64,000 bases of DNA from Amoebophrya sp. A120 (lineage: Eukaryota > Protista > Dinoflagellata), in the NCBI GenBank assembly GCA_905178155.1, contig CAJINV010000001.1, positions 605,643 through 669,642 of the forward strand. Reading direction: 5' to 3'. The notes below the pieces were generated by a model. The model was not told the DNA's origin. It ran no database searches and saw only the letters and a list, made by a program, of their open reading frames with translations. A program made the translations under genes and the position numbers. Position 1 is the stretch's first letter, and every line of letters begins with the position of its first letter. This document shows, piece after piece, positions 2,770 through 48,900 of this stretch.

Positions 2770-4474
2770 ATGTACGAAGAGAAACTAGTGCTACCTCCGG
2801 ACGGCGTCGGCTGTGTGGCCACGCAGGCTATTGCATCTGGCCAGGAGATCATACAGGAGTATGAAGCGAAACGTGGGTCGACAGGAGCAGAGGAGAATAC
2901 CGGGTGTACTCTAATCATGACGTTTTCTGGAGCTGTATCGCTAACGCAAAAACACAAACGAGCTTGTATGTACTTTCAGTACACCATTATGATTGAACAA
3001 AGCACTTTGCAATGTGAGAAGAAAATGCGCCCTTCTTTTACACCGACAGAACTGCCCTGCCGACGAATAACGTTTCTACTTCCATACACGACGGCCTTGC
3101 CTGGTCCCCTCCGACTTTCTGGTAGTCAACCCGACTGCAAACAACAACCGCGACCCCGCCACTGCCGAGGAGTACCGAGACCAACGCGACGCGTTTCTGT
3201 CCGACGTTGCAGCTGCCCATCTCTCACAAAAGCAGAAAACCGCGGTGCTGCAGCTCGCCGACGCCTACAAGGGGGAGTTTCAGCGGGAAGAGAAACATTT
3301 GTTCACCATCGCTCTCACCAACAGCTACGAACCCGGGCTCTTTCTCCGCATCGCCCGCCTGAACCACAGCTGCTGTCCGAATGTGGAATTGCTCGTGGAT
3401 GATAGAAAAGAACGACAAAGTGGAGATTCTGACGCTAGTACCATTACAGGAAATACTACTTCGCTAGAAGTAGTAGCCCGGGTCACCGCGCTCCGGCACA
3501 TTGGGAAAAACGAGGAGTTACTCACCTCGTATGTCGACCCCTTTGCGTCGTTTTCTACACGGCAGCGCGTGTTGGAAACAACCTACCGCTTTACCTGTTT
3601 GTGCCCTTGCTGCGCCAGGTGTGCGAATGACGCGGTGTTTCGAGCTGCCTCCGACCAACGGCGCGCCCGGTGTCGCAGGATTCTCGACGTGCTCGAGCTC
3701 GGGAGTTGTGGAAGGGCCGTGCCGGGTTTTGCTGTTGACAGCGATAAAACAAGCAGTATGGAAATCGAAGGACATCAAAAAGAAGAGCAGGACGTGGCTG
3801 AAGACGTAGAAGATCTTCACGATCTTGATCCCGCTTGGCGTGCTTTGCTTCAAGAACTTCAGGATATTATTTTCGACAATGTCCTGAAAGATGAAAATAA
3901 ATCGCCTCCGAGGACGAGCCCGGGCACCACGGATGCAGCAGCAATAGTGTCACAAGGGCACAACGAGCAAAAATACAACCCCGCGAGGCGGTGGCTTCTT
4001 CGCTACCGCCCTTCTGCCACGAAGGATGCGTTTCTGCCGATTCCCGCGGAAGGTCTCGTAGGAAAAGAGGGCATGGCGTTTCTGTTCCGAAATGTCAACA
4101 TTCCCGGGGAGCACATTCGCAAACTGGCGCTAGAAGCGCTGCGGTTGCTCGCAGAAGAGCAGCTGTGTTGCGGCAGTGTTTATCTTTTCAAACTGCGTAT
4201 GGCAGCGTTGATAGGGGGGTTGCGAACGGTGATAGGCAGTTCGATTTTCGAAGGAAGGCGCAGGGGAGATGAAGCAGGAAAACAACAAAAAAACGAACTA
4301 CTGTTGTGGTGCCAAAGGTGGTTGAAGGAAGAGATTTTGAACGATTCCGGCTCCTTCATTTACAAACAAGCTGTGCATGACGAGCTCGATCCTGAAACAG
4401 AGCTGTGTTTCTTGCGGAAACTGGACGCAGCTTTGGATAAAAATTGGGTTGCGCCATTATTAAAACAGAACTGA
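2770..4474 (+). CDS. SET-domain (SMYD-like) lysine methyltransferase, 2 exons
   Basis: GVGCVATQAIASGQEIIQE|RPCLV; LFLRIARLNHSCCPN; ALRHIGKNEELLTSYVD; post-SET YRFTCLCPCC. Confidence 0.85.
2860..3086. mobile_element. Introner, singleton and eroded
   Basis: TATGAAGCGAAACGT...ACGTTTCTACTTCCATA imperfect TIR; degenerate TSD AGGAG/CACGA; removal restores frame (QE|RPCL). Confidence 0.65.
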
Positions 4475-5269: not shown

Positions 5270-8200
5270 ATGGAGCCGCGGCACACGGTTCCGCAGGAGA
5301 AGGCGCTGGTGGCGCCGGCGGAGATTTTGGCGGACGGCCAGACGGTCTACAACCTGTACCGGGGAATCGTGTGCAACATTGTGAAGACGAGTGGGAAGGA
5401 AATCTTGTCGCGCATCTGGGTGGACCTCAGCCACATGCAGGTGTGCGTTGCCAAGTTGGACGAGTCCTTCATCGCGAGATTCGATGTGCACGACCTGGTG
5501 GTTCGGCCCCAGGGAGCGGCGCTGCACCAGAAAAGCCCCGAAGTGTCCCCGGAGGATGTATTTTTTTTGGGAGAAAATTTTTGTTTTACAGAAATAGGTC
5601 TGCAGAACAAGAAGTCGGATGGCAAATGCAGTCGCGCGCACTACTCGGATCGAAGTACAGTTAATATAAGCAGGGAAATTAAAAATTCCGCGGCTGTGAT
5701 TACAGGGCATCTCCCTATTAATTTGTCTGTAGCAGCCTTCAAGAAAGTGAAAGTCAAAGTTCCACATCTCTTTGTTCCTAGGCCTCCGTCGATTTAGCAG
5801 AGATCCTGCTCGAAGAGGAGGAAGCGGAGCAGAGCCCGGGGTCGCACAGCCTCGTTTTCTGGGCCAGCAACGAGTACTTCGAGAACAACACGCGCAACGC
5901 CGAGCGGCAGCGCTTCTTTGCGGAGTTGGGAACCAGCCGTGTGTATCAAATGCAAAAATGTCTGGGTCGGGAAGAAATCAGATGTTTGTCATGCAGCTTT
6001 TGCATCTGCGCGGAGGTCTGGAATACACGCAAAGCATGAGAAATTCCTGGGAGGCTTATTCATGCCTATCCCGCATGAGAAATTTTCCCTCGCCCAGGCA
6101 AAAACCGGCTATATTTTGCTGACCATGCAAGACAGACTCTTGCCTCTTCCAGAATTCGCATGACAAGTTTGGATCCTGCCAGACCCAGACATTTTTGCAG
6201 TTGATAGGGTGCACAAGGAAAGTGGACATCATCCAACCGACAGCTCCTCCGCCCGGTATTCTGAGTAAAAACGTCCCCACCCCAGAGTTGTCATGCAAAT
6301 CTGCATGCCAAAAAAGTTTTTCATGCGGAGCCCCATGAAAAGCGCTTTGTAGTCGTATTGTGAAATTTGTGATGCTATAATCAGCATGATATGCTAGATC
6401 GGTGATGCTGCTGAACTACTTAAACAGGATTACACTACGAGGACAAATCTGTAATGCGAAACAACCAAAGCTGATTGATTTGTCTAGCAGATTTCCCATC
6501 TTGACTCTGGTGTGGGGACGTTTTTACTCAGGATACCCGGGAAAGGAGAACGATTGTGGTGCACATTCTGCCCCCGACCCAGCTCCAACTTCTATCCGAG
6601 CAGTGGGACGAGAGCTTGGAAAAAGCGTCGATCGCTTTGCACTATCAAATGCAAATATGTCTGGGCCTGGAGACTTGTGATGCTAAAATGTGGATGATGG
6701 AAACAGTTCGGGATGCAACCTAGCTAGACAACTTTCCAGAACGCTTTCGCATAGGCAATCCGCAGCAGGAACTGCGTGTTTGCATGTACAAAAGAGGCTG
6801 CGACTGTTGTAGGTTATGCAATACAGATGTCCTAGGTATGGAAAGTTAGCATTACAAGCTCCAACCTTGTTGTTCCAGACCCAGACATATTTGCAATGCA
6901 TATGCACCGAGACGCGACGACTTCTGTAAAGAAGGACAGCGTGACGAACTCGGATTCTAAAAACAGCTCGCAAGTTATCGACAGCCCGGCGGAGGATGGG
7001 AATCCCGATGTAGTAGTTGATCCGCCCACGATTTTGGACAGCGCGGCTAGTCCCTACAGCCCGACGAAGCTCGCTTTGACGCCCGCGACGCCCCCGATCG
7101 GCGTCGGAAAGATGAAGCCGGGAGGTGGACCTCCGGCGGTGGTGAAGCGCGACGAGAGCATGGCGTCGACCGAAGCCGAATCTATGATCAAGCCCACAGC
7201 CACAGCGCTGGCCACGAATAGTACCGCGGGTGGCGCGGTGTCGTCGACGGCGAAAATGGTAAAGGATCACGACGCAGAAGAAGAATCGTTGGAGCGGACG
7301 CGCTCCTACGTCCTGCAAGCCGCCGCGGCCGCGACGCGCGAGGATGACGTGGTTAGCAGCGGCACCGGGGCGAACCCCCCGACGTTGCCGACGTTTGTGA
7401 ACAACATCCGGAAGTTGCGCGGCTTGGTGGACACGGACCAGCACGCGATTCTGCACCTGCAGCGAAACATGTTCCAGTATCTCTGGCGGTTCAACGCGGC
7501 GGCTATGACGCCCGATCAGCTGTTCTCCGCGCAGGCGGTAGAATTTGCTTTACTTGCATCTTCGCTGGACGATTTATTGTGCTGGATAAAAATAGCAGCT
7601 GCGGTTTTATATATTAGTTCTGCACAAAGAAACCCACTTCTGCTTCTGCAGCACTTCTGCAATGAGCAAGATGTCATAATAAAAATCACGACATATTCCA
7701 ACTACCCGCACCTCCACAGGTGCTGGCCTTCAACCTGGACCCGAAGGACGGGATTGCGTACCTGAAGGACAAGGTCCTACGGCAGTCGGACGTGGAACCG
7801 CGGCGGGTTGGTGAGTGGATCGCGGACATGTCTGCAGCCGGGAAGGGCGGCATCGACCCCTCCATCCTCGGGCGGTTCTTCTCCCGGAAGGATTCCCTCG
7901 ACATCTACGTCGGGTTCGTGGAAGCGGTCGACTTCCGCGGGCTGTCCATCGTGCAGGCCATGCGCAAGTTGTTCGACTGCTTCAAGCCGGGCGGGGAGGG
8001 ACAGGTAATGTATCCTGTGTAGAAACGTCCCAACCCCCTAGTCAAAGTGGGCATCTCGCAACACAGATCAAGAAGTTTTGGGAGTCAAGCATGACAAGTT
8101 CCTCTCTGAATAGTTCTAGTGCTGTTTAGCAAGCACAGACGCATCACAAAGCCATCTACTAATCCTGTTTAGAGCATTACAAATTTTTCCAAAACACGAT

Positions 8201-9923
8201 TTGAATTGCCTCTCATGCTGATGCGCATTACCAATCGTCATTGTGTGATTGCAGCCTTGCATTACAACTATGGGGGTGGGGACGTTTTTACATAGGATAT
8301 AATCGACCGGATCATCAACCACTTTTCGGAGAGTTACTACCGCCAGACGAAGCTCCCCGTGGACCCCGACCGGCCACCCACGCTGCCGAACACCACGGAC
8401 AACTTTCCCGAGTGGAAGTCCGCGGACTCGCCCTACGGCTTCGGTTTCGCGATCATTATGCTGAACACGGACCTGCACGTGATGGGCCGCTATCAAATGT
8501 AAAAATATCTGGGTCTGGAAGGTTGCAACTTGTGATGCTGTCTTTGGAAGGTAAAAAAAGGACTAGCAAGAGGAGTTCAGTTTGTGCTACGCGGAGTGGG
8601 CATTTCTCATGCGGAATACGCATCAGGGGGTCATTTAAAAATCTGTGATGCTCGGCCATGCATTACAGGCATCATGGGTTATGCAAAATATGCATGACAA
8701 ACCTGGCAGACCCAGAAACTTTTACACTTGATAGCCGCATGATCGGCAACAAGGCAAAGTCGAGCAACGACAAGGGATTCAGCGGCATGTCGGTGTCGCA
8801 GTTTATCGTGAACAGCCGGACGATTTTGCAGCCGGAGGAAGCGTCGGACCAGTTTTTGACGAACGTGTACGAAGACATAAAAGCCTCGGAAATCCAGTTG
8901 CGGCCGCTACCCCAGGCCCCACTGAGCTCGTTGCCCGTGGCGCCCGACATCGAGGGGTGGCTCACGGTGCTGCTGCAGGTGAATCCGCGCGGCGTGCACA
9001 TCCAGCGGTACTGGTGTGTGTTGGCCATCCAGCGGCTGTACATTTTCAGCGACAAATACCACGGGCTCGGCTTGTACCCGCGACTGTGCTTGGACGTGAA
9101 AGCGATCCGCGCCAATACGGTGTCCGACCCAGAGTCTTTCCAGGCTCTGCTAACGCAGATCGTGGAAAACCAGCAGCCAAGGCGTAAGTATCTAGGGAAT
9201 GTGATTTGTGCATGTTTTTTCTTTTCATTCGTTCGGGGTTTTCGCTATGCAAAAGGAATTCTGTCGGTGTCGTTTTCATCCTGGTCCGGACTACTTTAAC
9301 CCTTATATCAAAAATCCAGGCCGCGCTGCGTTTTCCAAGTGCCTGCAGTCCTCCTGTCTCCGGGAGGGCACAGGAGACCGTAGTATCGAGAAGTCGGCTT
9401 CGCTCGTGTGCAACAGCAGTGAATTCCGGCAATACGAGCTGTCTTCGGATTTAGCGATCGTGCTGACCAAGGATAAAGGCGCGACGCAGGACTTGGACCT
9501 GTACTTCCGTCCGACAAGCAGTGAGGAACTGAAGGAGCAATCCTCGTTCTCTCAGTCCTGGGCCGTGCGGCGCGCCAGCCACATGCTCAGCTCCGCGACG
9601 GCGTCCTCTGCTTCGCAAAAACAGGCGTACACGTCGCAGCAGCCCGAGGGCAGTTGGGAACCGCGCCAGCCACGGCAGAAGCGGTTTATCCCACAGAAAA
9701 AAGCTGGCAGGATGAGGCTGTAATGCAAAAATAAACACACAGAAAGATCTGTCATGGGCGGCCTCATAGCATGCTATTTAGGATATGCAAAGCAAATTTT
9801 TTTGTCTATTTATTTTTGCATTACAAATATGACCTGCCAGTTTTTTTCTGTGTGAGACGGTTTGTTTGTTGCGCGGAAACGCCAAATTTGATGAACAAAT
9901 GGGTCAGCATGCTGAGCATGTGA
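5270..9923 (+). CDS. Sec7 + PH domain ARF guanine-nucleotide exchange factor, multi-exon (6 introners plus GT-AG introns such as 7538-7719 and 9184-9319)
   Basis: Spliced FNLDPKDGIAYL...FKPGGEGQVIDR (Sec7 catalytic Glu motif)...AIIMLNTDLH...MSVSQFIVN...VYEDIK; PH domain EGWLTV...RYWCVL, ending RFVCCAETPNLMNKWVSMLSM*. Confidence 0.88.
5944..6206. mobile_element. Introner, family A
   Basis: TIRs; TSD GTGTG/GGGTG. Confidence 0.88.
6257..6535. mobile_element. Introner, family B (TATCCTG.GTAAAAACGTCCCCAC TIR)
   Basis: TIRs; TSD CCCGG/CCCGG. Confidence 0.9.
6643..6902. mobile_element. Introner, family A
   Basis: TIRs; TSD TGCAC/TGCAC. Confidence 0.9.
8011..8299. mobile_element. Introner, family B (inverted relative to 6257)
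   Basis: TIRs; TSD TAATG/TAATC; removal restores Sec7 GQVIDR. Confidence 0.9.
8491..8733. mobile_element. Introner, family A
   Basis: TIRs; TSD GCCGC/GCCGC. Confidence 0.9.
9687..9857. mobile_element. Introner, family G (TATCCCACAGAAAAAAGC.GGCAGG TIR)
   Basis: TIRs; TSD CGGTT/CGGTT; removal completes the PH domain. Confidence 0.85.
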
Positions 9924-22945: not shown

Positions 22946-25900
22946 ATGCCGGAGGATATGATTCAGCGGCTGATGCCCCCGCGGGCGGCTCCGGAGAACC
23001 AGGCCTCGTTCAACAGATTGCGGTTCGAAATGGAGGACGACTATCATGTGCAAATATGTCTGGGTCTGGAAAGGTGGAACTTGTGTTGCATGTCCTGCAT
23101 TCCTGAAAAATCTGTATTGCATAGCCACCAAACGTGCGACTCCTTTGTGATGCAAAAACGCAGCTTGTCATGCGTGCTACGCATCGGACGGCGCCAACTA
23201 AACTTGTCATGTGAGGCTGCACTTGAAAGCAACAGACTCATCCATGCTTTAGCATCACAAGTTTCCAAGCCCAGACACATTTGCAATTGATAACGACTGC
23301 GACGACCTGATTGACTCCATCAAGGCCATATCAAATGTAAAAATGTCTGGGTCTGGAAGAATGCAACCTGTGATGCTGCGTCTCCATTATCCAAAAATCT
23401 GTATTGCATGAACAGCAAAAGAGGTCTGGCTTTGGCCACGGCGAGAGGGCATTTCTCATGCGGTATAGGCATCAGAAGGTCCTCACAAGGCCTGTGATGC
23501 TAGGGCATGCATCGCAGACATCAGGAGTCACGCAAAATGTGCATGACAAACCTTGCATGCTTCCAGACCCAGACATTTTTGCATTTGATAGGCCATGCAC
23601 ACCATGTGTCGCGGCCCCAAGACGTCCCAGGAAGACCTGCAGCTGGTGCTGAAGGAGTGCGAGGAGGACGACGATTTCTTGATCGACGAGGAACATCGTT
23701 CTGAACGGAAGGCTATCAAATGCAAATATGTCTGGGTCTGGAAGGATGCAACTTGTGATGCTGCCTTTGGATTCTACAAGAATCTGTACCGCGTGAGCAG
23801 CAAGAGAAGTTCAGTTTTTGCCAAACAGAGGGGGCAACATTTCTCATGCGGTATAGGCATCAGGATCAGGAAGCGCTCGCAAAATCTGTGATGCTGGGGC
23901 ATGCATCACAGGCATCATGGATCATTCAAAATGAGCATGAGAAATCTTGCAATCTTCCAGACCCAGACATATTTGCAATGCATAAAGGACCAACACGACC
24001 AACCGCACTCGACGCGCAAGGCCTCGCCCACCGAGGGATCGCTCGCCGACAATTCGACGCATTTCGACACTTTAAACAGCACGCGCGCCAGTGTGCTGAG
24101 CGGGGTGCATATCGTGAGGAAAAAGTGTTACAGTTACACACTCTGCGATGCAAGACACGCAAGACAGACAACCTCTGTCATGCCGGAAATGCTTGCCAGC
24201 CACCTCATTTCGTACGTGCGTGTTTTCGTTTATGGTCTGCGCTTTACAAGTTTTGTTTGCCATGCAGAGCAACTCTGTGATGCTGAAACTCCAACAAATG
24301 TGTAACTGTAACACTTTTTCCTTCGCATAGTGCAGCTCTCCTCGGCAGGGGTGAGTCCGGCGGCCTCGGCGCTATCAAATGTAAAAATGTCTGGGTCTGG
24401 AAGATTGGAACTTGTGATGCTAACTTTGGACTCTAAAAAGATCTGTATTGCATGACCAGCAATAGGAGCCCAGTTTGTGCTACGCGAAAAGGCATTTATC
24501 ATGCGGGATAGGCATCAGGAAGGCCTCTAAGAATATGTGATGCCAGATCATGCATTACAGACATCCTGAGTCATGTAAAATATGCATGACAAACCTGGTA
24601 ACCTTCCAGACCCAGACATTTTTGCATTTGATAGGCGCACTACAGCTACCACAGTACTATATCAAATGTAAAAATGTCTGGGTCTGGAAGAATGCAACTT
24701 GTGATGCTGAATTTGTATTCCAAAAAAATCTGTATTGCATGAGCAGCAAAGGAAACGTAATTTTTGCTACGCGGAAAGAGCATTTGTCATGCGGTATAGG
24801 CATCAAGAAGCCCTCACAAAATCTGTGATGCCAGGGCATGCATCACAGACATCATGGCTCATGCAAAACGTGCATGACAAGTCTCAGAATCTTCCAGACC
24901 CAGACATTTTTACATTTGATACACGACTACCCATAGCAACTACAAGCGGGACCAACTGCATGGGACGAATACTAGTAATTTGAATAGTACCAATTCCTCC
25001 AACCGAAGTCGCAGTCATCACCTATCAGATGCAAAAGTTTGTGCATACTAAATCGCGAAAATTATATTTTTGCATAATTATTAGAGGTTGACGGCGGCCT
25101 TCTTAGTCAAAGCTACGATGGTGCCGAAATCCAGTGTTGGTTCATTCCGAAAAAAACTGTTTAACAGTTTTTTTCGGAATCAAACTGTTTAACAGTTGAA
25201 ATCGCATAATATGCGATTTCAACTAGTCTGTCAGTGCGATCATAGTTACTACACTTTTGCAATGCATAGGGGAGTCACTCCAATAACTACGCCCCAACGG
25301 ACTCCGCGTCGTCGAGCGGCAATGATTCTTCGTACGCCGAAGACAGTTGTCGAGAGTGCTCTTGTTCGTCGTCGGAGCAGGAAGTGGGAACCAAGCGGTC
25401 TTCCTTGTCGGCTCGCGATGTTGAAATGGAGGCGGAACAGATCTATCCTGTGTAAAAACGTCCCCATGCCATAGTTGTCATGCAAGTCTGCATGCCTAAG
25501 AAGTTTCTCATGCGCAGCCACCTGACAGGCATTTTCTGATGCTTTCTGGGTGGAGTTTTTGTTTTTCATGCTAGAACAATCAGGATGAGAGTGTCGATTT
25601 CTCATGCTGCTGCTCTAGCTACACAGGGACAGGATTACTACACTGCGAGTCCAAAGAACTTGTGGCGGGCCGCAGCCAAACCCAAGCCGTGCTGATTTGT
25701 GTTGCAAAATTCCCATCTTCACGCTGGGGTGGCGACGTTTTTGCGCAGAATAAGATCGACTCGGAGATCAACCAGCTGATGTCAGTGCTGTCCGACAGTC
25801 TGGCGAAACTGAGCGTCAACGACATCGAGGATGAAAACGAAAACTCCGCCGGCTTTTCGCACGAGGGGGGCAAAAAGGAACACGACGACCGAGGACATAG

Positions 25901-27465: not shown

Positions 27466-28820
27466 AGGAGGACAGGATAGTAGATCAAACGCTACAGAGA
27501 AAATGAAAACCACAGGAATAAGGCAGCGATATTGATATTATGGTGGAGAGTTCTTTATAGCTTCATTCGGATTTAGTTCATTCCACCGCGAGAAGGTTTT
27601 CGTCGGCGAATCTGAATCCGCAGGTAGAAATGTAGCTAGAAGTTCTTTATTCGCAGGAAAGGCAAAAATGTTACATCCATCGCCCCTCGGCGATGAAGGA
27701 TTTGCTTCATCTTGAATCTGTTTAATCCAGATCAGTAAAGTATTTATTGATTAGTACCTAGTTGTAGTACAAACCGCTGTGGTTTTTCCAGGTACTGGCG
27801 GAATGTTTGTGCTGTCATGTAACAAAAGTTGTACTTACGTATCATGTAACAAAAGTTGTATCCACCTTACGCTAGTAACCGAGCCAAACTCGAAATATTC
27901 TTCCTACCCCACGAGAAAGAAACACCTCTGAAGTTGTAGAGGGCGACCACGAAACGCACTGGCAAGCAGGGCGAGATAAATTTGAGCTCTCAGCCGAATC
28001 TTGGCGTAGTGGTATTTATTATGTGCTTTTAGTACTCAACATGATCTACTACACCCCTGTTATTCATATCCTGTTTGGTACGAAGGAGCTATCGAAAAAA
28101 AGTAGTTGTAGATAACTCCAGAATGCCCCCAGCTTCATTTTTCCCTCAGAGTTCAGCGGCCAGTCGTTGTCTCATAGAGCTGCAGCTGCCCCAAGAAATC
28201 AACGGAAAGTTATAAGTGTAACGGAAAGTGGATATCGGCAGCAGCAGCGTCAGCAATCAGCTGGCACTAGAGGAGCGACGTAGAAGCATGTCGCCAGAAG
28301 CCGGCAAACAGGACCGCCACCAATCGATCGCCCCGGATTTATTTTAGCGTCTCAAGAAGATCATGAAGAAAGGTAGTAGTCACGACCTCGCCCTTATCGC
28401 AGGAGCAACAAAAAGCTGTTATTCATTATGAGTATCATTTTATCGCTTTTTATTCAATGAATGACACGTGAAATCAAGCAATGAGAATGACTGGATCGGA
28501 GTCAACGCCTCCCGAAGGAGCTCCACGGAGTTGGTCCGGAAGCTACTTCGGGAGATTGAGAACTGTTTTTGAACCAGAACGGTACGCGCTGAGGCCCAGA
28601 ATTATTTGCACTAGCATCGTGATTGGGGTCAGACCTTGCGTATATACCCGGGCGTGGTACCCTCGTGAAACGCCTTTTTTTACGCTGGTCAAACTTAGCG
28701 AATTCATTGGCGAACGCGCGCCATACCATGCGGCTTCGCAGTTCGTGGCGAGACGGATTTCCCTTGGTCTCTCTTTGCTGATCTTCATCGTTTTCCAGGA
28801 TCCCGGAATTTTCGGCTTCC

Positions 28821-29200
28821 GAGATTTCCCGGGAACTTGTGCAACTCGTGCAACTTTTGCACGTTTTTGTTGCGAATCACGAGGGTACGGCCGAGTTGCA
28901 CGGCGAGTTGCACGGTGCAACTCGCCGTGCAACTATCACAATAATTCGCGCCGAACCAGGAGAGTACGGGCCTTTCGAGATGTCCCGGAAACCTGCGCAA
29001 CTCGTGCAACTTTTGCACGTTTTGCGTTGCGAATCGCGATGGTATGGCCCGAGTTGCACGGCAGGTTGAACGGTGCAACTCGCTGTGCAACTAGCCCTAC
29101 ACTTTGCGCCGAACCAGGGCGGTATGGGCCGTGTTTCGATTCGACTTGTGCTAATCGCTCAACTTCGGCAGTTTTGTTGTGCGAACCACGGCGCGCCCGC
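28821..29200. repeat. About 156-bp tandem repeat (2 copies plus a degenerate third) with TGCAACT/AGTTGCA palindromes
   Basis: Units start at 28821 and 28977; perfect 20-bp stem 28894-28913 / 28915-28934. Confidence 0.8.
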
Positions 29201-30189
29201 TTTCCCAACTTCCACGCGGGACCGCGCTGGCGCATGTGGGCAGTATTACCAGCGCGCGCACGCTGGCTGCTGCGCATGTGGGGGATGTGTCCACTGTGTC
29301 GCGCTGAGAATGGGCATGCGCATGTCGGCTGTGTCTCCTCTTCGGTTGGTTGTTGTTGGTTGTCAATTGGGTTACCGTTCTGACGTATTGGCAACCAACT
29401 TGAAAACTGGCGCACTGCCAACGAGACAACTTGACAACCAACCCACAACCAGCACCGCCGTCGCGAACGTCCTCGGCACGCCCGCCCGAGTATCACGGCT
29501 CCGCTTCCGGGAATGTGATGGCGCGCGCGGGCAGTATTGCCGCTGCGCCTCTCTTTCCCTTCGGCCCGCGCCACAGCACTACTGTTGGGGGCGCTTTGAG
29601 GCCCGTCCGCCGCCGCCGCGCGCGGGCGCCCCAGTGTGGTGGGCCTTGTTCCCCGCCGCTCTGCATTACGGCTCGGGCCCTGCGGTTGCGGCCCCTCGGG
29701 CGGACGAGCGGACCACCCCCAGAACAGTCACCAACGAGGGGACCGGCCAGGCGCCCAACAGAAGCAAGCGGCGCAATGGTTCGGTCCGTGGTGAGGCCCG
29801 GGGGCACAATAGCTGTGATCAACAAAAGCCCCGCACTGGTTATGTCCGTGATGAGGCCCGCGGGCACAATAGCTGAAGTTCCCCCCCCTCCCAAACAAGA
29901 TGGCAAACCAGCGGGCCACCCACAACACCCCCCCCCGCCCAACGAACCACCAATGCGGGCGGCCCGGAAGCCAGGCGCACCACACGTGGGCGGCTCCCTG
30001 CCTGCCCGCGGCCAAAAGCGGGCGGAGTAGGCCAGCAAGGCAACCGGCCCTAAGCCCCAAAGGCTAGGGCAGGCCGCCTCTTTTCCCCAAAACTGAAACC
30101 ATCCAAACGGGCGTGACGGTGGGGCCTCCCCAAGCTTTCCCCTTCCCGGGAGTCAGGTAACTACGAAGGCGGAGGCCCATTCCGGACCT

Positions 30190-30575
30190 GTTAGGGCGGG
30201 AGTGGGGGCCCCCTTCGAGTGGGGGCGGCAGGGAGGTGGGGCCCCCTTGTGGGCAAAGAGGGCCGCGGGGGCCGGGGCCCCCCTCCAGGCGCGGTACCCA
30301 GCGGCCGGGAGGGCGGGAGCCGGGGGGCCCCCCCTGCAGGCGCGATACCCAGCGGGTGCGCGGGGGGGGGCGGGCAAGGAGGCGGGGGCCCCCTGCGCGT
30401 GGCCAGTGAAAGAGGGAGGCCGGCGGGGGCCCCCCTGCGGGCGGGCCGGGAGGCGGGGGCCCCCCTGTGGGGAGGATACCCAGCAGGCGGGAGGGCGGGA
30501 GCCGGGGACGGGGGCCCCCCTGTGGGGAGGATACCCAGCGGGCGAAAGGAAGGGAGGCGGGGGCCCCCTGTTTTC
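30190..30575. repeat. GC-rich degenerate minisatellite (GGGGGCCCCCC...GATACCCAGC units)
   Basis: Repeated self-complementary G/C runs. Confidence 0.7.
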
Positions 30576-31964
30576 CCCGACGGTATGCTCGACGCAAAAA
30601 TAGCAACCTTCAGCGTGCCGCCGTGTTAAAAAGTCTGGGCCTCAGCGCGTACCGGTCTCTTTTGAAAACCTATGATGCTTACAAATGATGGTCCTATGAT
30701 TCGAGAGCCCGTAACTGCTGATGGAAACTATTCTTCTACACCACCTAGCAAGGAATAAACTACAAAGAAGAAAGCCGCTACAAGCGGGGCGCAGCCCGTA
30801 GCACCCTTTCTGCAGTCGTTGCTTTTTCTTCCTTAGGTCGTGTTTGAGTTGTTGTGTCGCGACTTTTCCTTCTCGTGTCGTTCTTTCTTCAGCTTTTGTC
30901 AAAACCTGCTGCCGCGTCTGTGCAGCGAAAAGCAGTAATAGCTCCCTGGAGTTTTATTTTGTGCGAAATTCAAATTTTTAGGATTACGGTTGCATCATAA
31001 ATGCTAAAACCGTATCGAAAGAGGAATTCCACCCGCTGTTTGCAAGAAAAAGAAACAGGAAGCTTCGCGCATTGAAAAAAGAATGTTTATATTATAGTTT
31101 TCACTACTATAAGTAAACCAACTTTATTACCCCCAGCACTTCGGCCCCACCTTGTGCTTGTGCAGAGTCGAGCGTTGCGTTGTTAAAGCGCAAGCCGACA
31201 CTCGAACTCGAAAAGAAAAACCAAAATCGCTAGCTGCACACGTAGTTTTTTTTCTTTTACCGAAGATGAGCCAAGCTTTTTATGAGAGCGAGGCGAAAGA
31301 CAGCTTGGTTTTTTCTTCAGGAATTACCGGCAGCATATTACAAGGAAATTTTAAAAAAAGAACATTATCTGGTACTTGTACGTATTCTTGAATTATATCA
31401 CGACGACTTTCTTTATCCCGGTTTTAATATTGCCTTGCAAATTATCAATCGGAAAACGAAAACAAAACTCATAATACCATATGCTTTGTTTCAGGCCGAC
31501 CGCAATGTAAAAGTTGACTTTGGCGACGAAATTGAAAAACTCTCCTAGTCTTTCGACCCAGTTATCTTGAGAAAAGCACTATGAGCCAGCCTCTTGACGA
31601 AGAGACTGAAGACGAAGCCCAGTAGATGAAGAGTCAGCAATCAATGATGAATTTACGTATGTAATATTTGTTCACCTCCAGCAACTTTTCCACTTTTTGC
31701 CGTGCCGTGTGGCTTTTTTAGCCTACAGAAGACTGAATTAGTGATGAAATGTCGACTGCAGAGTCTGCGCATCTTTCACACGCTATTGATCGACTTTCAT
31801 GTTGAATATACTTCTTCTGAACCTGCGCCGGTCATGTTTTTTTTCGTTCCAGTATCCGTTGTTCGTCGTGTTTGTTGTTAAGGTTGCGCACGAAAGAAAA
31901 GTCCTCCTCTAGCGTAGTTTACTGTATCGAGCACTTAATATTTCCCTGCACAAGAAGCAGTGCC

Positions 31965-33659: not shown

Positions 33660-36600
33660 ATGCCCGAAACGTTTGGCGGGTCCTCGAACTCGTCGGGAGG
33701 ACCGTCCGGGCCCTACCAGTCTTCTATGGGCACCTCGAGCTCCTCTTCCTCCAGTACTGCCGGTACCGCCGACCGGTTTCTCCCGGCCTCGGTGAGCGAC
33801 AGCGCGCGCATGATGTTCCACGCTGGGCAAGCCGACTTGATATGGATTGCAAATGTGTCTGGGGCTGGAAGATCGCGAGACTTGTCATGCTAATCTGGCA
33901 TGACTCTAAACTCTGTATTGCGTGACAGCGAAACGGTCCTCTTGCCTGTCAAGCAAAAACCCAGTTTCTCATCCGGAGTACGCAACTCAGAACCATGGAA
34001 AACGAAAAACTTGTCATACTTGCCAGCGCATTACAGTGCGCTCACTATTCCCTTTCTTGCATCACAAGTTTCCAGACCCAGACATAGTTGCAATGCATAC
34101 TTGAACAGTGGCGACCATTTGTTGCCGAAGACAGACTACTATCAACTGCAAAAATGTCTGGGTCTGGAAGAGTGGAACTTGTAATGCTGTCTTTGGATTC
34201 TAAAAATATGTGTTGCATGAGCAGCAAGAGGAGTCCGGTTTGTCCTACGTGGAGAGGGCATTTCTCATGCGGAATAGGCAACAGGAAGCCCTCCAAAAGT
34301 CTGTGATGCTAGGCCATGCGTTACAGGTATCACGGGTCATGCAAAATATGCATGACAAACCTCGCAATCTTCCAGACCCAGACATTTTTGCATTTGATAA
34401 CTACGAGCGGGCGCTCGCGGAGAACTGCCTCGGGAAGGGGCAGCTGCAGGACATGGAGAGCGAGCGCATCCTGGCGTATAGCAAGAAGCCGCCGCCCCCG
34501 GCGCAGACTGGACTGGACGAGATGCGAGTGGTGTATACAGTGGCGCGGAACGCGACCAGAAACCCCGCGGCGAGCACGGTGGGCGCCGACCGAGTGATCC
34601 CCACCACCGCATTTCGGACCCTCGACGCGCCCGACTTAGTGGACGACTTCTACCTCAACCTGCTTGACTGGAGCAGCCAAAACGTGGTCGCGGTCGCCCT
34701 TGGCGGACTTGTACTATTTACATGCTTTATGCAATATTATCGTGGTTGCTAGTGATGTTGTAGCGAATGTTCAGGTATGTTGTGCGACGTATTGATTTAC
34801 ATAAAAAATCCACTCTACTTCGGCACAAAGATGTTGAAAGATGGCACCATCCCTCTTGTCAGGTCTACCTCTGGAACGGCAACACAGCGTCCACGACAGA
34901 GCTTTGTAGTTTACTATTACAATGAAAAATGCCCCCTCCCCATATCAAAACGGAAATCTGTGATGCAGATTTGTGGTCACAAATCAGCTTTGTGATGCTA
35001 GAAGGCAAAAGATGCGGACTGTAGTGCTCCCTAGCGTGGGAAAGCCTTGCAGCTTCAGGGTGACAGGAGGCAACTGGAAGTGGGAAACAGCATGACAGAT
35101 TGCCGGCAATTTAGGCCGCAGCTTCGTCTCTTGGCCTTCTAGCAATACAAGTCGATTTGTGTACTCAAATACAGCATCACACATTCGCGCATCTTCCGTT
35201 TCCGATATGGGGTGGGGGCTTTTTTCACTTTGATATTTACCGGAAGATACCGACACCTACTTCACCAGTGTGCGGTTCACCATATCGCGAGGAAAAATCC
35301 CCCCTCCCCATACTGAAAATGTATATTTTTGAAAATTTGTGATGCTGATTTGTGGCCACAAATCGCGTCTGTTTTGCAAGAAGGCAAACCCAGAAGGCCC
35401 CCCGAATTCCGCCGGCTGTTTGTGATGCTGCTGGGCCTACATCATGGACTTTTGTGATGGTGAGCGCCTAGGCCAAAACCTCTCCACTCCGGCTTGATAT
35501 GGGCCTGCAGTCCTCTACTGCAAGACAGGGCTGATTTATGTACGCAAATCCAGCATCAGAAATTTCGATTGTATATCGGGAGGGGTTTTTTTCCCTTTCG
35601 ATTCACCAAAGACGGAAATCACTTGGCATTGGGACTCTCCGACAGCACCACACAGCTCTGGGATCTCGGTACTGGACAAAAGTAATAGTGAAGTTCTTTT
35701 TGTCTTCTTGCAGCATACATAATGGAAACAAGCATTCAGTGTGGTAGTAGTCCACTGTGGTCGTCAAATAATCACTATAAACTTCAGAAGCCGCTTTTCC
35801 CGTGAAGAGTACAGGTCGCATCAAAGATAAAGCTTAAGCTATAGAAATAAGTGCTTGAACTACAACTCGTGGAGATGAGGACTTCGAGGGCTAAAGCTGT
35901 TCCACCTAAAATTGTTTCGTCCAAAACTACAGGTAAGAGCAAGCAGCTGCGCGCCTTCCGCACCCATTCCGCCCGCGTGGGTGCTCTCGCGTGGAACGGG
36001 CCGCTTTTGTCCACGGGATCAAAGGATTTCGAGATTCACAGTATCGTAAGGAAAAATTCCCCCTCCCCATATTGAAAAGGTATGTTTCCGAAAATTTGCG
36101 TTGCTGATTTGAGGTCACAAATCACATTTGTCTTGCAAGAAGACAAGGGCAGAAGCTTTCGCCCCATTAGGGAAGCGATTTGCCACGCTGTTGAGCCTAA
36201 AGGGGATCCGTTTGCCATGCTGAACAACTAGACCCATACGCCTCTACCTAGCCTGGGGATCTGGCCGCAGTGCCTCTCTGCAATACAGAGCTGATTAGAT
36301 TTGTGTGCACAGGTCAAGCATCAGAAGTTTCGTTTTGATATGGGGAGGAGGGAAATTTCCTTTTGATTCACAACCACGACGTTCGCGTCCGGGAGCACCT
36401 GGTCGCCAAAATGGGCGAGGGGTTTCACCTATCAAATGCAAAAATGTCTGGGTCTGGAAACTTGCAATGCTAAAAGTGGATGATAGCCGGATTGCAATAC
36501 GCAGCCAAGCATGAAAAATTTTTGAGCTGCTATGTGCTGCGTATTCCGCATGAGTAGAAACAACGTTTTTACATGACAGATAGGAGAGCCATTTCGTGCC

Positions 36601-38696: not shown

Positions 38697-39975
38697 ATGC
38701 CGAAAGCTCCTCCTCTTTGGTCGGTGCTGCTGTTGCACCCGCCATGGAAGACCGCCGATGGACTCAGTCTCGCCGATAATAATCGCGATCCACCAAAACC
38801 GGCACACATGAAGAAATCGTTCCTTGCGCCCTCGATGGAGAGTAGAAAAAGTTCCGGAACTTCTACGGACACGAAATCTTCCGCGGCCGCCGGGCCGCCC
38901 TGCGCCTGCGAGGCCACCAACCCGAAGTGGCAGCCGCCGGTGCCGCGCGACCCGATGTGCTTCTTCATCGACGTGGGGGCGGGGCGCGGGGACAGCGAGC
39001 TGGCCTTCCTCGGCGAGCACGGGGGGCAAACGAGCACGGGCGGGCAAGGGCAGCAGCTGACCTTCGACACGGGTGCGTGGAAGAAGGAGGAGTGCTTGTC
39101 CTACCTGGTGGAGCCGAACTCCAACTTCGGGCCGTCGCTGACGGAGTATCAGAGTGCACAAGCACAACACTCCCCCTCGTTTGTCATGCAAAATCCCGAT
39201 CCCACTTGCTGCAGTGTGGGTCTGTTTGCATGACAAATTCTGGAGGAACGCGTACTGGTGTTTGTATTCGGTGTAGTTCATGCAATACAAATGGGGTTGA
39301 ACAACGGGAGTAGTTGTGCACTCTCATACGGAGGTGGCACGACGGGTGCCCGGGCGGATCTTCCCGATGGTGCAGCAGGCTGCCTACATGTGCGATAAGC
39401 AAAACGAAACCTTCTACCTCGATACCGCGGGGCCGCACGCCCGGGGGTCGGCGATCGACCCGCATCACAGCGACATCCAGCGCCAGGGCACCGCGAAAAC
39501 GCCTGTCAATGTACTGACTTTTGATAGATACAACCCTTGTAGCAGCTTAGTCAGTTCACAAAGACAAATTAATCAGGTTTCTTCAGGCAATTCAGCATGA
39601 CAAATTCCACAGGTCACACTGGTGAACCTGCTGCGGTGGTTGCGCGAGGGCGTGTTACCGGAGGACCACCTTGTTTTGAAGATGGATGCGGAGGGCGCGG
39701 AGTGGGACATTATCCCCTGCCTGGCGAAGAACCCGGACATCTACAAGCTGATTGACGTGATGTACCTGGAGGACCACTGCCCGCGCGGCCAGTACTGCTG
39801 CTTCGAAAACCTCCACACGGTCCACGGCGAGCAGCAGTGCGACCCCACCCCGCAGGGCCAGTGCTGGTGCCCCTCCAAGGGACAGGCGGGCAACACCCGG
39901 GCGGACTTCGACGCCGCACTGAACACGCTGAAGAGCGCCGGGGTCAAGTTTCCGCCCTACTTTTCGGAAACTTGA
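38697..39975 (+). CDS. FkbM-family SAM-dependent methyltransferase-like protein (introner 39147; GT-AG intron 39511-39612)
   Basis: FFIDVGAGRG; LVEPN; LVLKMDAEGAEWDII; IDVMYLEDH. Confidence 0.8.
39147..39328. mobile_element. Introner, family E (TATGAGAGTGCACAAC TIR)
   Basis: TIRs; TSD CGGAG/CGGAG. Confidence 0.9.
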
Positions 39976-42950: not shown

Positions 42951-45900
42951 ATGGAGACCTCCTCGGACGAAGATGAGCCCCGGCCTTATGAGCCTTGGAA
43001 GGAGGACATTGTGCGCGAGCTCTCCGCGCACAACACGCAGCATCGAGGCGGTTCGATATCCAGTAGTGGTCCACCTGCGCCGGCGGCACTACGGGGCTCC
43101 TACACGGCAGGCGGAGACCACCAAGACCGGGGAAACGATCAGTGTTTTGAGTTGTACTTGGACAAAGCTAGGATTACGAAGTTGTTTCGCACCCTGTATC
43201 CGTGGATTTTCACCGTGCTACTCGGGTTCGTGGTGGCGCTCAACGGGGCTTTCATCACACACAACGCGGACTGGTTTGCGGACTTCCGCTTCGGCGTTTG
43301 CTACTCCGCACACTACCTCGTGTTGGCCGACCGGAAGAGGTGTTGCGGCGGCATTGACAACTACGACGAGAGCGAGGATCGCTGTAATGAATTTGATAGA
43401 CATCAGGAGCTTGTAGTTTTGGTGCGCAAATTGTATGTAGTGAGGTCACCGAACGGTTCTAACCGGGGAGTTTTTTTGACACCCAGCCAGCAAAACGACC
43501 GGCAGTTTTCAAGCGGCCGAAAGCGTTTTTTGACATAAAAAATTTTCAATTATCAAGCGGGCGGGGCTTTGATATCAAACAAGCCCGGTCGAAAACTATC
43601 GATTCGCACTTGATAAAACGACGCAGGGGAGCCGGCAAAAGGGGCGCCCTTCTGAGGAGCCCACCGCCTTAGTTTCTGGCGATTTGGGGCGCCCAAAAAG
43701 AGGCGCGCAAAAAGCGCGCCCAAAATCAGAAAAGCGAAACAGCATGGCACGGCCGCGATTTCGAAGCATTTTGGGCGGCCGCGAAAGCGGCCGCCTTTTC
43801 GCCGGTTTCAGAGCCTGGGGAGCTTTGCAAAAAGCGCCGGCGTGAAAAATAAAAACGCAAAAGGGAAAAAGCGCGCCAGACGCGCAAAGCCAACCCGCAT
43901 GCTGCGGGCCCGATTTTTCTTTGCTTTTTGAGCGCCCCCCGTGGCGCCCGGATCGGCCCCATAGCATCGGGGCTCGCTTTCGGAAAGGAATTTTGGAAAT
44001 GTGCCAAGATTTGTGATGTTTCTCAAGTGACCGCCATACCGTGCGGCATAACGTTACTCACGGCGGTATGGCGAGCCCAGAAAAAGCAAAGCCGCGGCCA
44101 AGGCGGCGGTCGGAAAAAAACGCCCACGACCTCACTACCCCCGCCCCGGCGGCTATATTTGGTAAGAATACTACTTGCACGAGAAGAGAACAAGTGCGAT
44201 TTATTATCGCAATCCTGTACGAACAGGATTCAAATCAATGTCCGCACTTGCTCATGAGAAAATAAACATACTACAAACAAACCAACTATACAGGCATCAC
44301 GCCAGCCGAGGTTTACCGCGACCCGTCGTCCCAGGTAGCCGCGGATGTGCAGCAGTGGTACGCCTGGGAAGAGCTGGCGGTCGCCTCGTCTCGCTCCAGC
44401 TCGTGGATAGGTTGGCTCGCCGCTTTTCTGGTGTACTGCGGCTCCTCCGTTCTGTTCACGGCAATCTGCTGCCTGATCGTGTTCGAATTCGCGCCGCAAG
44501 CCAAGGGGTCCGGGATTCCCGAGGTGAAGGCCCATGTTTCCGGGTTCGACCTGAAGCAGTCGTTCTCGCCGATGACGCTGCTGCTCAAGTCCGTCGGCCT
44601 GTCGCTCGTGGTCGGCGCGGGCCTGGCGTTGGGGAAGGAGGGTCCGCTGATCCAGGTGGGCGTGTGCTGGGCGCACATCTTGGGGAACCTAAAGGGGATT
44701 CCCTTTCTCGGGTCCAACCGGTACACGCGGTTTTTCCGCGACGAACAGGACGTCATCAACGTGCCACTGTATGTATGAGAGTGCACAACTCCCCCTCCCC
44801 CTCATTTGCATTGCATGAACAGCAATACAAACACGAGCACACGTGGAGCCTGTGCATGACAAATTTTGTACCCGCCTAGTGCAGTACTGCTACTGTTTGG
44901 GCTTGCGGAATCTGGCATGCAAACAGTGCCAAAGGGAAGCACTTAGACTTGGGGTTTTGCATGACAAGTGAGGGGGAGGGGCGGGAGTGTGCACTCTCAT
45001 AGTACGAGTGGAGCTTCGTCGGCGCCGCGGTCGGGGTGTCCACGGCGTTCGGAGCGCCTTTGGGCGGCGTGTTGTTTGCGGTGGAGGAACTTGGCTCGGT
45101 GCGGACCATCACGCGACGGGCGCTGCTGCTCTGCTTTCTCGGCGCGTTTGCGGCCTCCTTCACGTTGAAGTTTCTCAACATCACCGGAAGTAACAACGTC
45201 ACGATGTTCTCCCTGTCCACGGCTTCCAACTCTTACGCCGGCGGGGAAAAGCTTGGCTGTCAATGGGAATGAGTATGTCGTTTTGATGAATGCGTTGGAA
45301 GAATGCGTTTTTTTATCGATTTCCACGGGTTGTGCTTCTTTTCTTGTCATGCAAAAAATGTACGTTGTAAATCTTGATGAACAGGCGCGAGTACTACACT
45401 TAAGGAGGCTTTCTTGTGTTCTTGTTCGTCTTCTCTTTGTGATGTGGAGTAAGTAGGTACGAGGAAGTAGTAAGTAGATCATTTTTCCCCTAGACACCTA
45501 GCGCAATTTATTGCCTCTGCATACCAGTTTCCGCAAAGAGTGGGGCGTGAACGAGATCTGGTTGTTCTTGCTATTGGGCGTGCTTGGGGGCGTCCTTTCC
45601 GGCCTGTTTATCCGTATGAACCTGTTCGTCGCGCGGGAGCGGAAGAGAAAGAAACAGGACCACGGCACGCTCTGGTTCCTCACCCGCGACCAGCACGAGT
45701 GGATTCTGAGCTACCTGCTTCCCGAGCGGTTCGTGCGGAAGATCCGCGAGCGCGGCAGCCAGTACCGGCTGTCGAGTCGCGCGCTGGTGGTGGTGGAGGG
45801 AGTCTTCATCGCGGTGTGCACTTCCGTGACGAACTACATTTTCACCCGACTGCTGAAATCGCACTCTACCGTAGCGATCCACGCGCTGTTCGAGACCTGT

Positions 45901-48900
45901 CCCCACTCCAAGGGCTTGCATTTCGCCCTCTGCAACGACAAGAACACGTTTAATGCGAGCTTTATGGATTGCAAAAATGTCTGGGTCTGGAAGATTGCGA
46001 CTTGTCATGCTAAATCCGAATCATGCAGAAATCTGTGTTGCATGAGTGCCAAAACCTGTCCGCTTTCGACCAAGTTTGGAGGGAGTTTCTCATGCAGGAT
46101 AGGCATGGCAGAGACCTCACAGACACTGTCATGCTAGGTCCCGCATTCCAGACCTGATGGGTCATGGAAAACCTGCATGACAAGCTTACACTCTTCCAGA
46201 CCCAGACATTTTTGCATTTGATAAGCTTCTCCATGAACGGACAGCTGCTGCTGGCCGCCGGGATCCGACTCCTGCAGACCGTGATCACGTTCGGCGCCAT
46301 GCTCCCCTCCGGGCTGTTCATCCCCTCACTGTTCATCGGCGCGACCGTGGGGCGGTTGGTGGGCAACATCAGCTACTTGGTGGTGCTGGAGCAGCACATC
46401 GAGCCGGGCGTGTTCGCGATGATCGGGGCCGCCGCGATGTATCGTATGTAAAAACGTCCCCACCCCATAGTTGTAGTTGACATGCAAATCTGCATGCTCA
46501 AAATGTTTCTCATGCGGAGCCCCATGAGAACCATTCTCTACTCGTGTTTTGGAATTTGTGATGCTAGAATCAGGATGGCATGCTAGATCTGCGATGCTTC
46601 GGAACTAGCTAAGTAACCAGGATCACACTGTGAGGACAAACTTGTCATGCGAAGTTACCAAAGCTGGTGGATTTGTCTAGCAGATTTCCCAGGTTGACTC
46701 TGGTGTGGGGACGTTTTTACTCAGGATACGATGCTGGCGGGGTTCACGCGGATGACCGTTTCGCTGGTGGTGATCATGTATCCTGTGCAGAAGTATCGTA
46801 CTCGTATAAATGCAAGTCTTGCATTACAAATCTTTTACTTAAGGTAAATGCGCATTACAAATTTCATCTCTCATGCTGAGGAAATTTGTAATGCATTTAT
46901 ACGAGTACGATACTTTTGCAGTTCATACCATGTTCGAGCTCACCGGCGAGCTCACCTACGTGATTCCCTTTATGTGCGCGGTGATCACCGCCAAGGTGGT
47001 GGGCGACCTGTTCACCGGCAGCATCTACGAGGAGCACGCCACTTTGAACGGCTTCGCCAACATTGAGGACACGCCCACCAGCATCCGGCTGGAGGTGCTG
47101 GTGGCGGACCTGGCGAGCGAGTACCCCTGGACCAAGGTGCTGGACGTGGACCAGTATTTTCGGTTCGCGGCGTATGCAAAGAAAAAAGTGTTACAGTTAC
47201 ACATTGTGTTGCAGACCAAGCAAGAGAGACAAGCTCTGTGATGCCGGATATGCATAGGAGCCTCGTTCCATAGGTGTTTTCCCGTAGGATTTCTGCATTA
47301 CAAGTTTTCTCTCTCATGCAGAGAAATTTGTGTTGCTGAATTCACTACACATGTGTAACTGTAACACTTTTTTCGTGGGATACGGCGCTGCGCGACATGG
47401 TGGGGCTGGAACCCGCGACCCTCTGCGCGGACGCGGATCAGCACGACGAGGACCCCACGCACGTGATCGAGTTGGACGAGGGGGAAGATGAAATTGGCAA
47501 TAACAGTGCCGGGGGCGCAGAAATAAAGCCGACACCCACAAGTTCTTCGCAGCTCACCGTGTTCGAGCCGGACTATGTGGGGCCAAATGTGGTCCTGGAG
47601 GACGGCACGACGACGAAAGGGCATTCCAGTTCTGGTTCGCCGCAGGCTGTGCTAAACATAAACAACTCTTCGGCGCGGAAGACGAAAAAGAAGAAGCGCC
47701 GCAAACTGCTTGCGGAGAACCCATTCCGTTCCTCCGACGACGAGGACGATATATGCACTAAAAATGTGTGCGGGTCTGGAATGTTCGAACTAGTAATGCT
47801 GGTCTTACATGACTGTAAAATCTGTGTTGCATAACCAACAAAAGTGGTAGCCTCTCATGTCATACAAAAACGCAGTTTGTCATGCGGAGTTCGTATGAGA
47901 AAGCGTTCTGCAAGCTTGTCATGCTTTCCTGCATAAGGAAGTGTTTTCCTCTTGCACATTTTAGCATCACAAGTTTATTCGAGACCCAGACATACTTATT
48001 TGCATTTGATACGAAAGCGGGGGCGACGATTTGAAGCGGGACCGCGACCGGCTGCTTCGCCGGTCAAAGGAGGGCGCGCCGGAGATGAAGTTGCACTACG
48101 CGGCGAGAAGTCGAACGACTGCGGGTGGAGGTGGTGGTCCCCGGGGAAGCAATCTCCACACCACGACCGAGAGAAACCATCGGAAGTCGGAGCAGGACTC
48201 AGTCATTCTCGTGCGGCGTGGCGTCGGCCCGATCTTCGGGTACATCCGGAAGCGCCGGCTGCGCCAGTGGTTGATCGAAATGATGTATGCATTGCAAAAG
48301 CATCGTACTAGTACGAATAGCATGGCAAATTTGAATTTCTTCAAGAACAAAAATGCAATTTCCATTATGCTGATTTGGCTATAGATAGAAACAAGCATTT
48401 GTCACGAATGGTTACAAATAGTACAACGAGGGCGATATCACTTTTGCAATGCATATGATGCGCGTGGAGGACAACAAGCTGCTCGAAGAGCGGTATTGCT
48501 GCTTCGCGCTGTTCGGCGGCGACGGCCTATCAAAATGAAAAATCCCCCCTCCCCACATCAAAACGAAGACTTGTGTAGCATGATTCTTTGTGATCACAAG
48601 TGAGTCGCGTTGTCATGCTAGAAGGGAACAAGAGATGCGGACTGTAGTGCTGGCTGGAGCGGGAAAGCTTTGCGTCGTCAGCATGACAGGAAGCAACTGG
48701 AAGCGGGATGAAACAGCATGACGCATTGCCTACACATAACGAGGCCACAACTGTGTCCCTTGGTCTTCTAGCAATGCAAGTCGATTTGTGTACTCAAATG
48801 CCGCATCTCAAATTTCGTCTTCGATATGGGGAGGGGGGGACTTTTCCTCACAATACGGCCTGTGGGCGGAGAACATGGACGTGCGGGCGCAAACCTTCCA

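Follow-up and report, generated by a model that had tools for sequence, protein, structure and literature searches.

A single -1/+4 splice register fits the introner junctions of a 64-kb window of the Amoebophrya sp. A120 genome

Introners of the dinoflagellate Amoebophrya sp. A120 are very likely removed from transcripts in one fixed register, in which the intron comprises the last base of the left target-site duplication (TSD), the element itself and the first four bases of the right TSD (-1/+4). We analysed a stretch of 64,000 nucleotides (nt) of contig CAJINV010000001.1 (positions 605,643 to 669,642; "the window", from whose first letter all positions below are counted), with particular attention to an element at 8011-8299 that interrupts a Sec7 gene and from which an earlier reading of the DNA had proposed this register (the original prediction). 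The register is confirmed nowhere by a single junction, but no other single register fits the junctions as a set; the samples are small.

Results

The Sec7 junction

Three named A120 proteins, Sec7, CDC20 and CLC (models P0001, P0069 and P0009, respectively), align exactly, block by block, with the window. Judged by these sequences, the DNA comes from Amoebophrya sp. A120 itself or from a strain nearly identical to it. The three proteins define 39 junctions, six at canonical introns and 33 at elements. The anatomy of the Sec7 insertion is as originally described, and its parts are read as follows.

8006-8010: left TSD copy, TAATG
8011-8299, + strand: element of 289 nt with TAT...ATA terminal inverted repeats, an A120-type introner, in the opposite orientation to its relatives at 46440 and 59017
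8300-8304: right TSD copy, TAATC, differing at base 5
8006-8009, + strand: left TSD bases 1-4, end of the Sec7 exon, exonic under the fixed register (exact base inferred from the ensemble of junctions)
8010-8303, + strand: inferred intron of 294 nt, made up of the left-TSD G, the element and four right-TSD bases, with GT...AT ends (length from the mapping of P0001)
8304, + strand: right TSD base 5 (C), exonic, completing an Ile codon (Ile in P0001 and six homologues)

The mapping of P0001 restricts the last Sec7 exon base to 8005-8009, and all seven Sec7 proteins compared, that of A120 among them, have Ile at the junction. The intron at 8010-8303 folds with a z-score of -5.7 (40 shuffles).

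The two TSD copies do differ at all ten elements that the original prediction had listed. It had used protein conservation to decide which copy is exonic at three of them, and the annotated A120 proteins have the expected GQV-I-DR in Sec7, IH-N-HDVR in CDC20 and VV-I-MFE in CLC. Homologues agree: the CDC20 junction residue is Asn in 43 of 54 motif matches and Ser in one, and the CLC residue is Ile in 19/19 motif matches. Taken alone, these three examples allow anything from one to four left-copy bases to be retained, and the register is under-determined by them.

Elements in the window

The window contains 56 TAT...ATA inverted-repeat elements, with a mean length of 254 nt, which make up about 22% of its length. 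This catalogue was built from stem scans, a scan with an end profile and protein mapping. It is partly selected on TSD match, and the unbiased subset consists of all 33 non-canonical introns of the three mapped genes. The flanks are identical over exactly 5 nt in 30 of the 56 elements (17 of the 33 in the protein-defined set) and over 3, 4, 6 or 7 nt in none of the 56; 237 of 280 flank bases match between copies, where 10,000 shuffles gave 77 matches on average and never more than 108. The consensus of 84 element ends is an inverted repeat beginning TAT, followed by seven variable nt and AAA. Both orientations occur within element families (37176 and 45963, for example, are 92% complementary). 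[quoted passage not shown] They also have those of A120 introners: the TAT+7 nt+AAA repeat start, direct repeats (of 5 nt), repeated families and absence from transcripts.

The elements are the introners published by Farhat et al. in 2021 from the same organism, which likewise begin TAT+7 nt+AAA, are flanked by direct repeats (3-5 nt) and have a similar length (240 nt) (PMC7789003), a correspondence that the original prediction had not noticed. The elements were therefore known, and the cut register was what was open. According to the same paper, non-canonical introns account for about 65% of the total in A120, nearly all spliceosomal proteins are present, U1 was not detected, no transposase was found, and RNA editing may occur near 2-4% of intron borders. 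The legend of its Figure 3 describes the splice sites as variable relative to the hairpin and the border as unknown; no splicing signature is given in the passages available.

Several individual elements have unusual features. The one at 56345-56929, of the 46779 family, contains an insert of about 440 nt with long A runs (about 56415-56853), with its ends and duplication intact and the frame maintained at +5. A predicted micro-exon of 21 nt (24638-24658), with adjoining exons of 31 and 38 nt, lies between two near-identical elements whose outer ends could pair across it. At element 25023 (25018-25277), four of five positions in the right flank are complementary to those in the left, and a second 5-nt repeat farther out offers an alternative in-frame border. 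X7 reads match the element family at 45973-46047, with the TAT start in other flanks and none on exons here; a diverged relative may share this family. Where duplications are mismatched at non-terminal positions, C is in the intronic copy ten times and in the exonic copy twice. T, by contrast, is found mainly in the exonic one, and the drift from AT to GC is unexplained.

A single register fits all constraining junctions

We write k for how many bases of the left copy are retained in the messenger RNA (mRNA); the original prediction corresponds to k=4. All 33 protein-mapped element introns are exactly the element plus 5 nt long. An upper bound, k≤4, is required by the gene models at 8011, 36042, 50529, 51893 and 51475 (3 or 4 in the last case), and orthologues independently require right base 5 at 8011, 36042 and 51475. 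A lower bound, k≥4, is required by gene models at 47752 and 51275 and by X1 contigs at 44774, 45234 and 49377. At the latter three, X1 pieces stop at 44772 and at 49375 and restart at 45528 without mismatches, which under leftmost placement requires that the transcript include left base 4. A control with the same end arithmetic recovers the GT-AG intron at 39511-39612. We presume X1 to be RNA, which is a guess, and no listed sequence set is recorded as RNA; the complementary DNA (cDNA) evidence consists of eight listed X1 pieces among 830 records. X1 omits canonical introns and elements alike, and X5 contigs cross both without gaps. The raw-read runs X7 and X8 fell only on repeats, not on exons.

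The only value of k free of conflict at the 14 constraining junctions is 4; k=3 and k=5 each produce five conflicts. For cuts that each fall uniformly within 0-5, the probability of no conflict at 14 junctions would be 1.1 x 10-4. The related elements 51275 (k≥4) and 50529 (k≤4), both of which match 9687, bracket the value 4. A fifteenth junction, element 2860 in an inferred SET gene, is also free of conflict at k=4. Its TSD copies share 0/5 bases, and the junction residue is Glu in 44 of 51 motif matches from 150 homologues, with one spacing only. The A120 SET protein was not among the matches of a representative-protein search, and homologue motifs served in its place. The claim that removal of element + 5 nt restores the frame where the TSD is unrecognisable (2860, 25023 and 62134) holds modulo 3 at all three; at 2860 the homologue spacing fixes it at +5, and 25023 is ambiguous. 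The introns other than that of Sec7 that were read at junction level are listed here.

2859-3090, + strand: inferred SET-gene intron, TSD match 0/5; the junction Glu needs at least four left bases and length +5
36041-36372, + strand: CDC20 intron; right base 5 used (P0069); terminal pair broken, ATT end
44773-45005, + strand: CLC intron; cDNA retains left base 4
45233-45527, + strand: CLC intron with decayed stem and TSD, fold z=0.8; the intronic copy now ends CAG
47751-48015, + strand: CLC intron; left base 4 retained; P0009 permits 47750-47751
49376-49560, + strand: CLC intron; cDNA retains left base 4; a CAG one base 5' of the 3' cut is not used
50528-50714, + strand: CLC intron with TAC start; right base 5 used (P0009)
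50793-50941, + strand: CLC intron, GT-AG exactly at this register
51274-51444, + strand: CLC intron; left base 4 retained (Leu, same in the A25 orthologue)
51474-51753, + strand: CLC intron; only three or four left bases retained (Asn-Pro, same in the A25 orthologue)
51892-52165, + strand: CLC intron; right base 5 used (P0009)

What sets the two cut sites

The original prediction included a 5' site that always reads N-TAT, which is supported together with the register, and suggested that both sites are measured from the ends of the stem. For the 5' site the latter suggestion fails. The first or second terminal pair is broken in four of the 33 elements (9687, 35283, 36042 and 36771), and the stem can be extended into the duplication in 12 of the 33, seven of them by two pairs. 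We reject a literal measurement from the stem end because the intron length remains element + 5 in all of these cases. T+2 and A+3 are invariant in all 56 elements, and their pairing partners at -5 and -6 vary three times each. The donors of canonical introns are GTA in 7/7, with no fixed base thereafter, so k=4 is the sole register that aligns the TA of the element with +2/+3 of the host donor. The 5' site is therefore probably read from sequence, as N-U-A. A GT dinucleotide at +1/+2 is not general, T+2 being present in 56/56 elements and G+1 in 20/56. In A25 the repeat begins TTA and all nine listed main sites begin TT (PMC7789003), which would again place TA at +2/+3, at a different offset from the stem, as far as a table that depends on the aligner can be trusted.

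At the 3' site, the part of the claim that stands is that the cut is defined by position. It is not found by scanning for AG, because the intron ends in AG in only 5 of the 56 elements and an unused AG ends 2, 3, 6 or 7 nt after ATA in 8 of the 33. The reference point for the cut appears to be a fixed landmark within the repeat and not the last base pair. Close to the 3' end, one base alone is invariant, an A at -7 (56/56).

Where the TSD copies differ at +1 or -1, G is in the intronic copy 12 times and in the exonic copy never (56 elements); the excess is 9 to 0 without 2860 and 25023, and 6 to 0 in the 33. The decayed copies at 45234 and 50794 end in CAG exactly at +4. Covariation between +1 and -1, and an insertion preference for G or AG, were not evident.

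Discussion

A proposed route of removal

What is established is that the element plus 5 nt is removed from insertions in both orientations, with no requirement for GT or AG and with nearby AGs ignored. We lean towards a reading in which a putative relaxed U2-type spliceosome recognises the 5' site as N-U-A and places the 3' site at a set distance from some landmark within the 3' arm. The register would place the TA of the repeat on +2/+3 of a host-like GTA donor and leave +1 free. The hairpin would bring the intron ends together and may substitute for intron definition by U1 and U2AF. The 3' cut would be counted from the landmark, for which the A at -7 is a candidate branch point. The net result would be the removal of one duplication copy's worth of sequence, such that the mRNA would not be altered by any such insertion. 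In Fritillaria, non-GT-AG introns derived from MITEs can be spliced out by a U2 spliceosome (PMC13326754). The P complex of yeast has G+1 paired with G-1 and U+2 with A51 of U6 (10.1101/212811).

Several results weigh against this route. G+1 occurs in 20/56 elements, AG in 5/56 and both in 2/56, and the standard pairs that dock the 3' site would mostly be absent. Among canonical introns, only 2/7 carry A at -7. The A at -7 is paired in the stem, which would have to be unwound, and has no branch consensus around it. The asymmetry between the arms, 0 against 6 changes, shrinks to 0 against 4 in the unbiased 33. The excess of G in intronic copies was noticed post hoc; control positions show 9 against 5, and Fisher's test gives p=0.042 for 56 elements, 0.21 for 54 and 0.45 for 33.

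Alternative explanations

The same fixed register could also be produced without a spliceosome, by a structure-guided nuclease and a ligase acting on the UAU/AUA duplex with a staggered 1/4 cut, as is suspected for euglenid introns. This corresponds to the idea behind the original prediction, with distances taken from the helix of the repeat. The lack of a conserved base at +1 or at -1 to -4, the strong hairpins (z-scores of -5.7 and -4.4), the function of both orientations and the failure to detect U1 in A120 (PMC7789003) all suit such an enzyme. Euglenid precedent adds to this: hairpin introns there show signs of a non-spliceosomal route (PMC12621601), a paired motif is surrounded by fixed spacers of N3 and N5-6 (PMC12501133), and Euglena introns form circles (as cited in PMC12621601). 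Several of our observations speak against a duplex-cutting enzyme. Unpairing of the two terminal pairs is tolerated through changes in the 3' arm only (0 versus 6), the TA coincides with the host donor, and G at +1/-1 and CAG turn up in intronic copies. Element 45234 has no fold (z=0.8) and yet is cut at +4 in cDNA, although a CAG is present there. On balance we consider the nuclease the less likely agent of removal, although it is the main rival. Another candidate can be set aside: the tRNA-endonuclease bulge-helix-bulge depends on a 3' overhang of 6 nt together with an exon-intron helix of 4 bp, and was rejected on the inconsistent pairing of the flanks here.

The register itself could be less rigid than we propose, with the total removed always element + 5 and the pair of cuts sliding among elements or molecules (3-5 left bases), the exceptions having been missed. 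No junction is bounded at 4 from both sides, and with five to six tests per side, the 0/5 exceptions found are still compatible with k=5 in as many as 45% of elements. The contigs show the majority path and conceal minor isoforms, and all mapped genes are on the + strand. The legend of Figure 3 in PMC7789003, with its variable sites and unknown border, points the same way. We nevertheless regard sliding as quite improbable: 15 constraining junctions show no conflict (the chance figure above applies to 14 of them), the related elements 51275 and 50529 bracket 4 from both sides, and slippage over identical duplications suffices to explain the published variability. An artefactual origin of the pattern, through the building of gene models, RNA editing at the junctions or excision at the DNA level, seems to us very improbable indeed. 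The upper bound, k≤4, does rest on annotated proteins, X1 is possibly not independent of them and is only guessed to be RNA, and possible editing has been described near 2-4% of borders (PMC7789003). Against this, orthologues independently need right base 5 at 8011, 36042 and 51475, X1 pieces have no mismatches and skip GT-AG introns too, and X5 contigs retain the elements.

Comparison with known systems

The fixed -1/+4 register contrasts with the account of Farhat et al., in which sites are variable and no signature is given in the passages available; here there is one register, with TA at +2/+3, and their figures might show the same placement (PMC7789003). The closest parallel is class 12 of the introner-like elements (ILEs) of Polarella glacialis, which likewise has a 5-nt TSD, a 5' site formed by the last TSD base and the first element base, and a 3' site within the right TSD, and hence the same -1/+4 register (10.1101/2020.10.14.339549). 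Unlike most A120 elements, it has canonical ends. It also requires a TSD of the form NNAGG (in a second frame, NAGGH) and uses a single orientation, whereas A120 elements accept any TSD in both orientations; NNAGG-type ends (GT-AG at the register) occur in 2 of our 56 elements.

Euglena nonconventional introns share base-paired intron ends with those described here, as well as direct repeats that let the borders slide, and their fixed spacers were solved by means of non-slidable introns (PMC12501133). The Euglena signature, N3CDG...CH'GN5-6 followed across the border by R, does not describe A120, where the spacers are 1/4 instead of 3/5-6 and the motif is TAT/ATA instead of CAG/CTG (PMC12501133). 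The purine rule at the exon start is also absent in A120, with a purine at exon +1 in 34/56, and the lineage is unrelated. Fritillaria borealis shares MITE-derived non-GT-AG introns, which are removed there by U2-type splicing; its AG-AC/AG-AT ends are tied to a TAC target and U1 is conserved, whereas U1 was undetected in A120 (PMC13326754; PMC11282704). Yarrowia, Candida guilliermondii, Trichomonas and Giardia have a fixed short spacing between branch point and 3' site, as A120 elements would if A-7 is the branch. Their spacers of 2, 3 and 4 nt place the branch A at -6, -7 and -8 by our calculation, but they retain a full branch consensus and AG, while A120 elements have neither and offer A-7 only as a candidate (PMC2483917).

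Other observations in the window

Another organism's database model, P0003, fuses a Sec7 protein with CDC20, which hints at conserved linkage; the two genes are about 24 kb apart in the window. A GT-AG intron of 910 nt at 43384-44293 contains a high-copy repeat (high X5 depth), and hundreds of X7 and X8 reads match 43491-43552 at 90-95%, with foreign flanks. The region 28500-30700 is GC-rich, internally repeated and free of elements; it gave no Rfam match, and two of its open reading frames gave no Pfam match when scanned. An Rfam search of 26000-64000 found nothing.

Implications

BLAT shifts introns towards partial GT/AG matches. We therefore did not count as independent support the nine main A120 sites of Table S4, all of which begin NT (PMC7789003). 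A fixed register is not stated in the passages available of PMC11282704, PMC12130899, PMC9860276, PMC11453091, PMC12005148 and PMC12787238, nor did literature searches return such a statement, although Figures 3, S19, S21 and S23 of PMC7789003 and Figure 3B of PMC11282704 might show it. As far as we have searched, the cut code is new as a variant, for elements that are known, and rests on 15 junctions in one window.

A single register would replace "unprecedented splice-site variability" with a short code, N-TA...A-N6. It would account for the ability of the elements to enter exons whatever the sequence, and with it the borders of gene models could be fixed across the genome. In its most specific form, which we put forward as a speculation with the odds against it, the A120 spliceosome has dropped its need for G+1 and a 3' AG, finds N-U-A at the foot of the hairpin, branches at A-7 and counts six bases. 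If this is true, every TAT...ATA element flanked by a 5-nt duplication would be a silent intron on landing, whatever its orientation and wherever in an exon it inserts. If removal is spliceosomal, the contacts of the active site with G+1 and AG would be dispensable, and those with U+2 and A+3 required.

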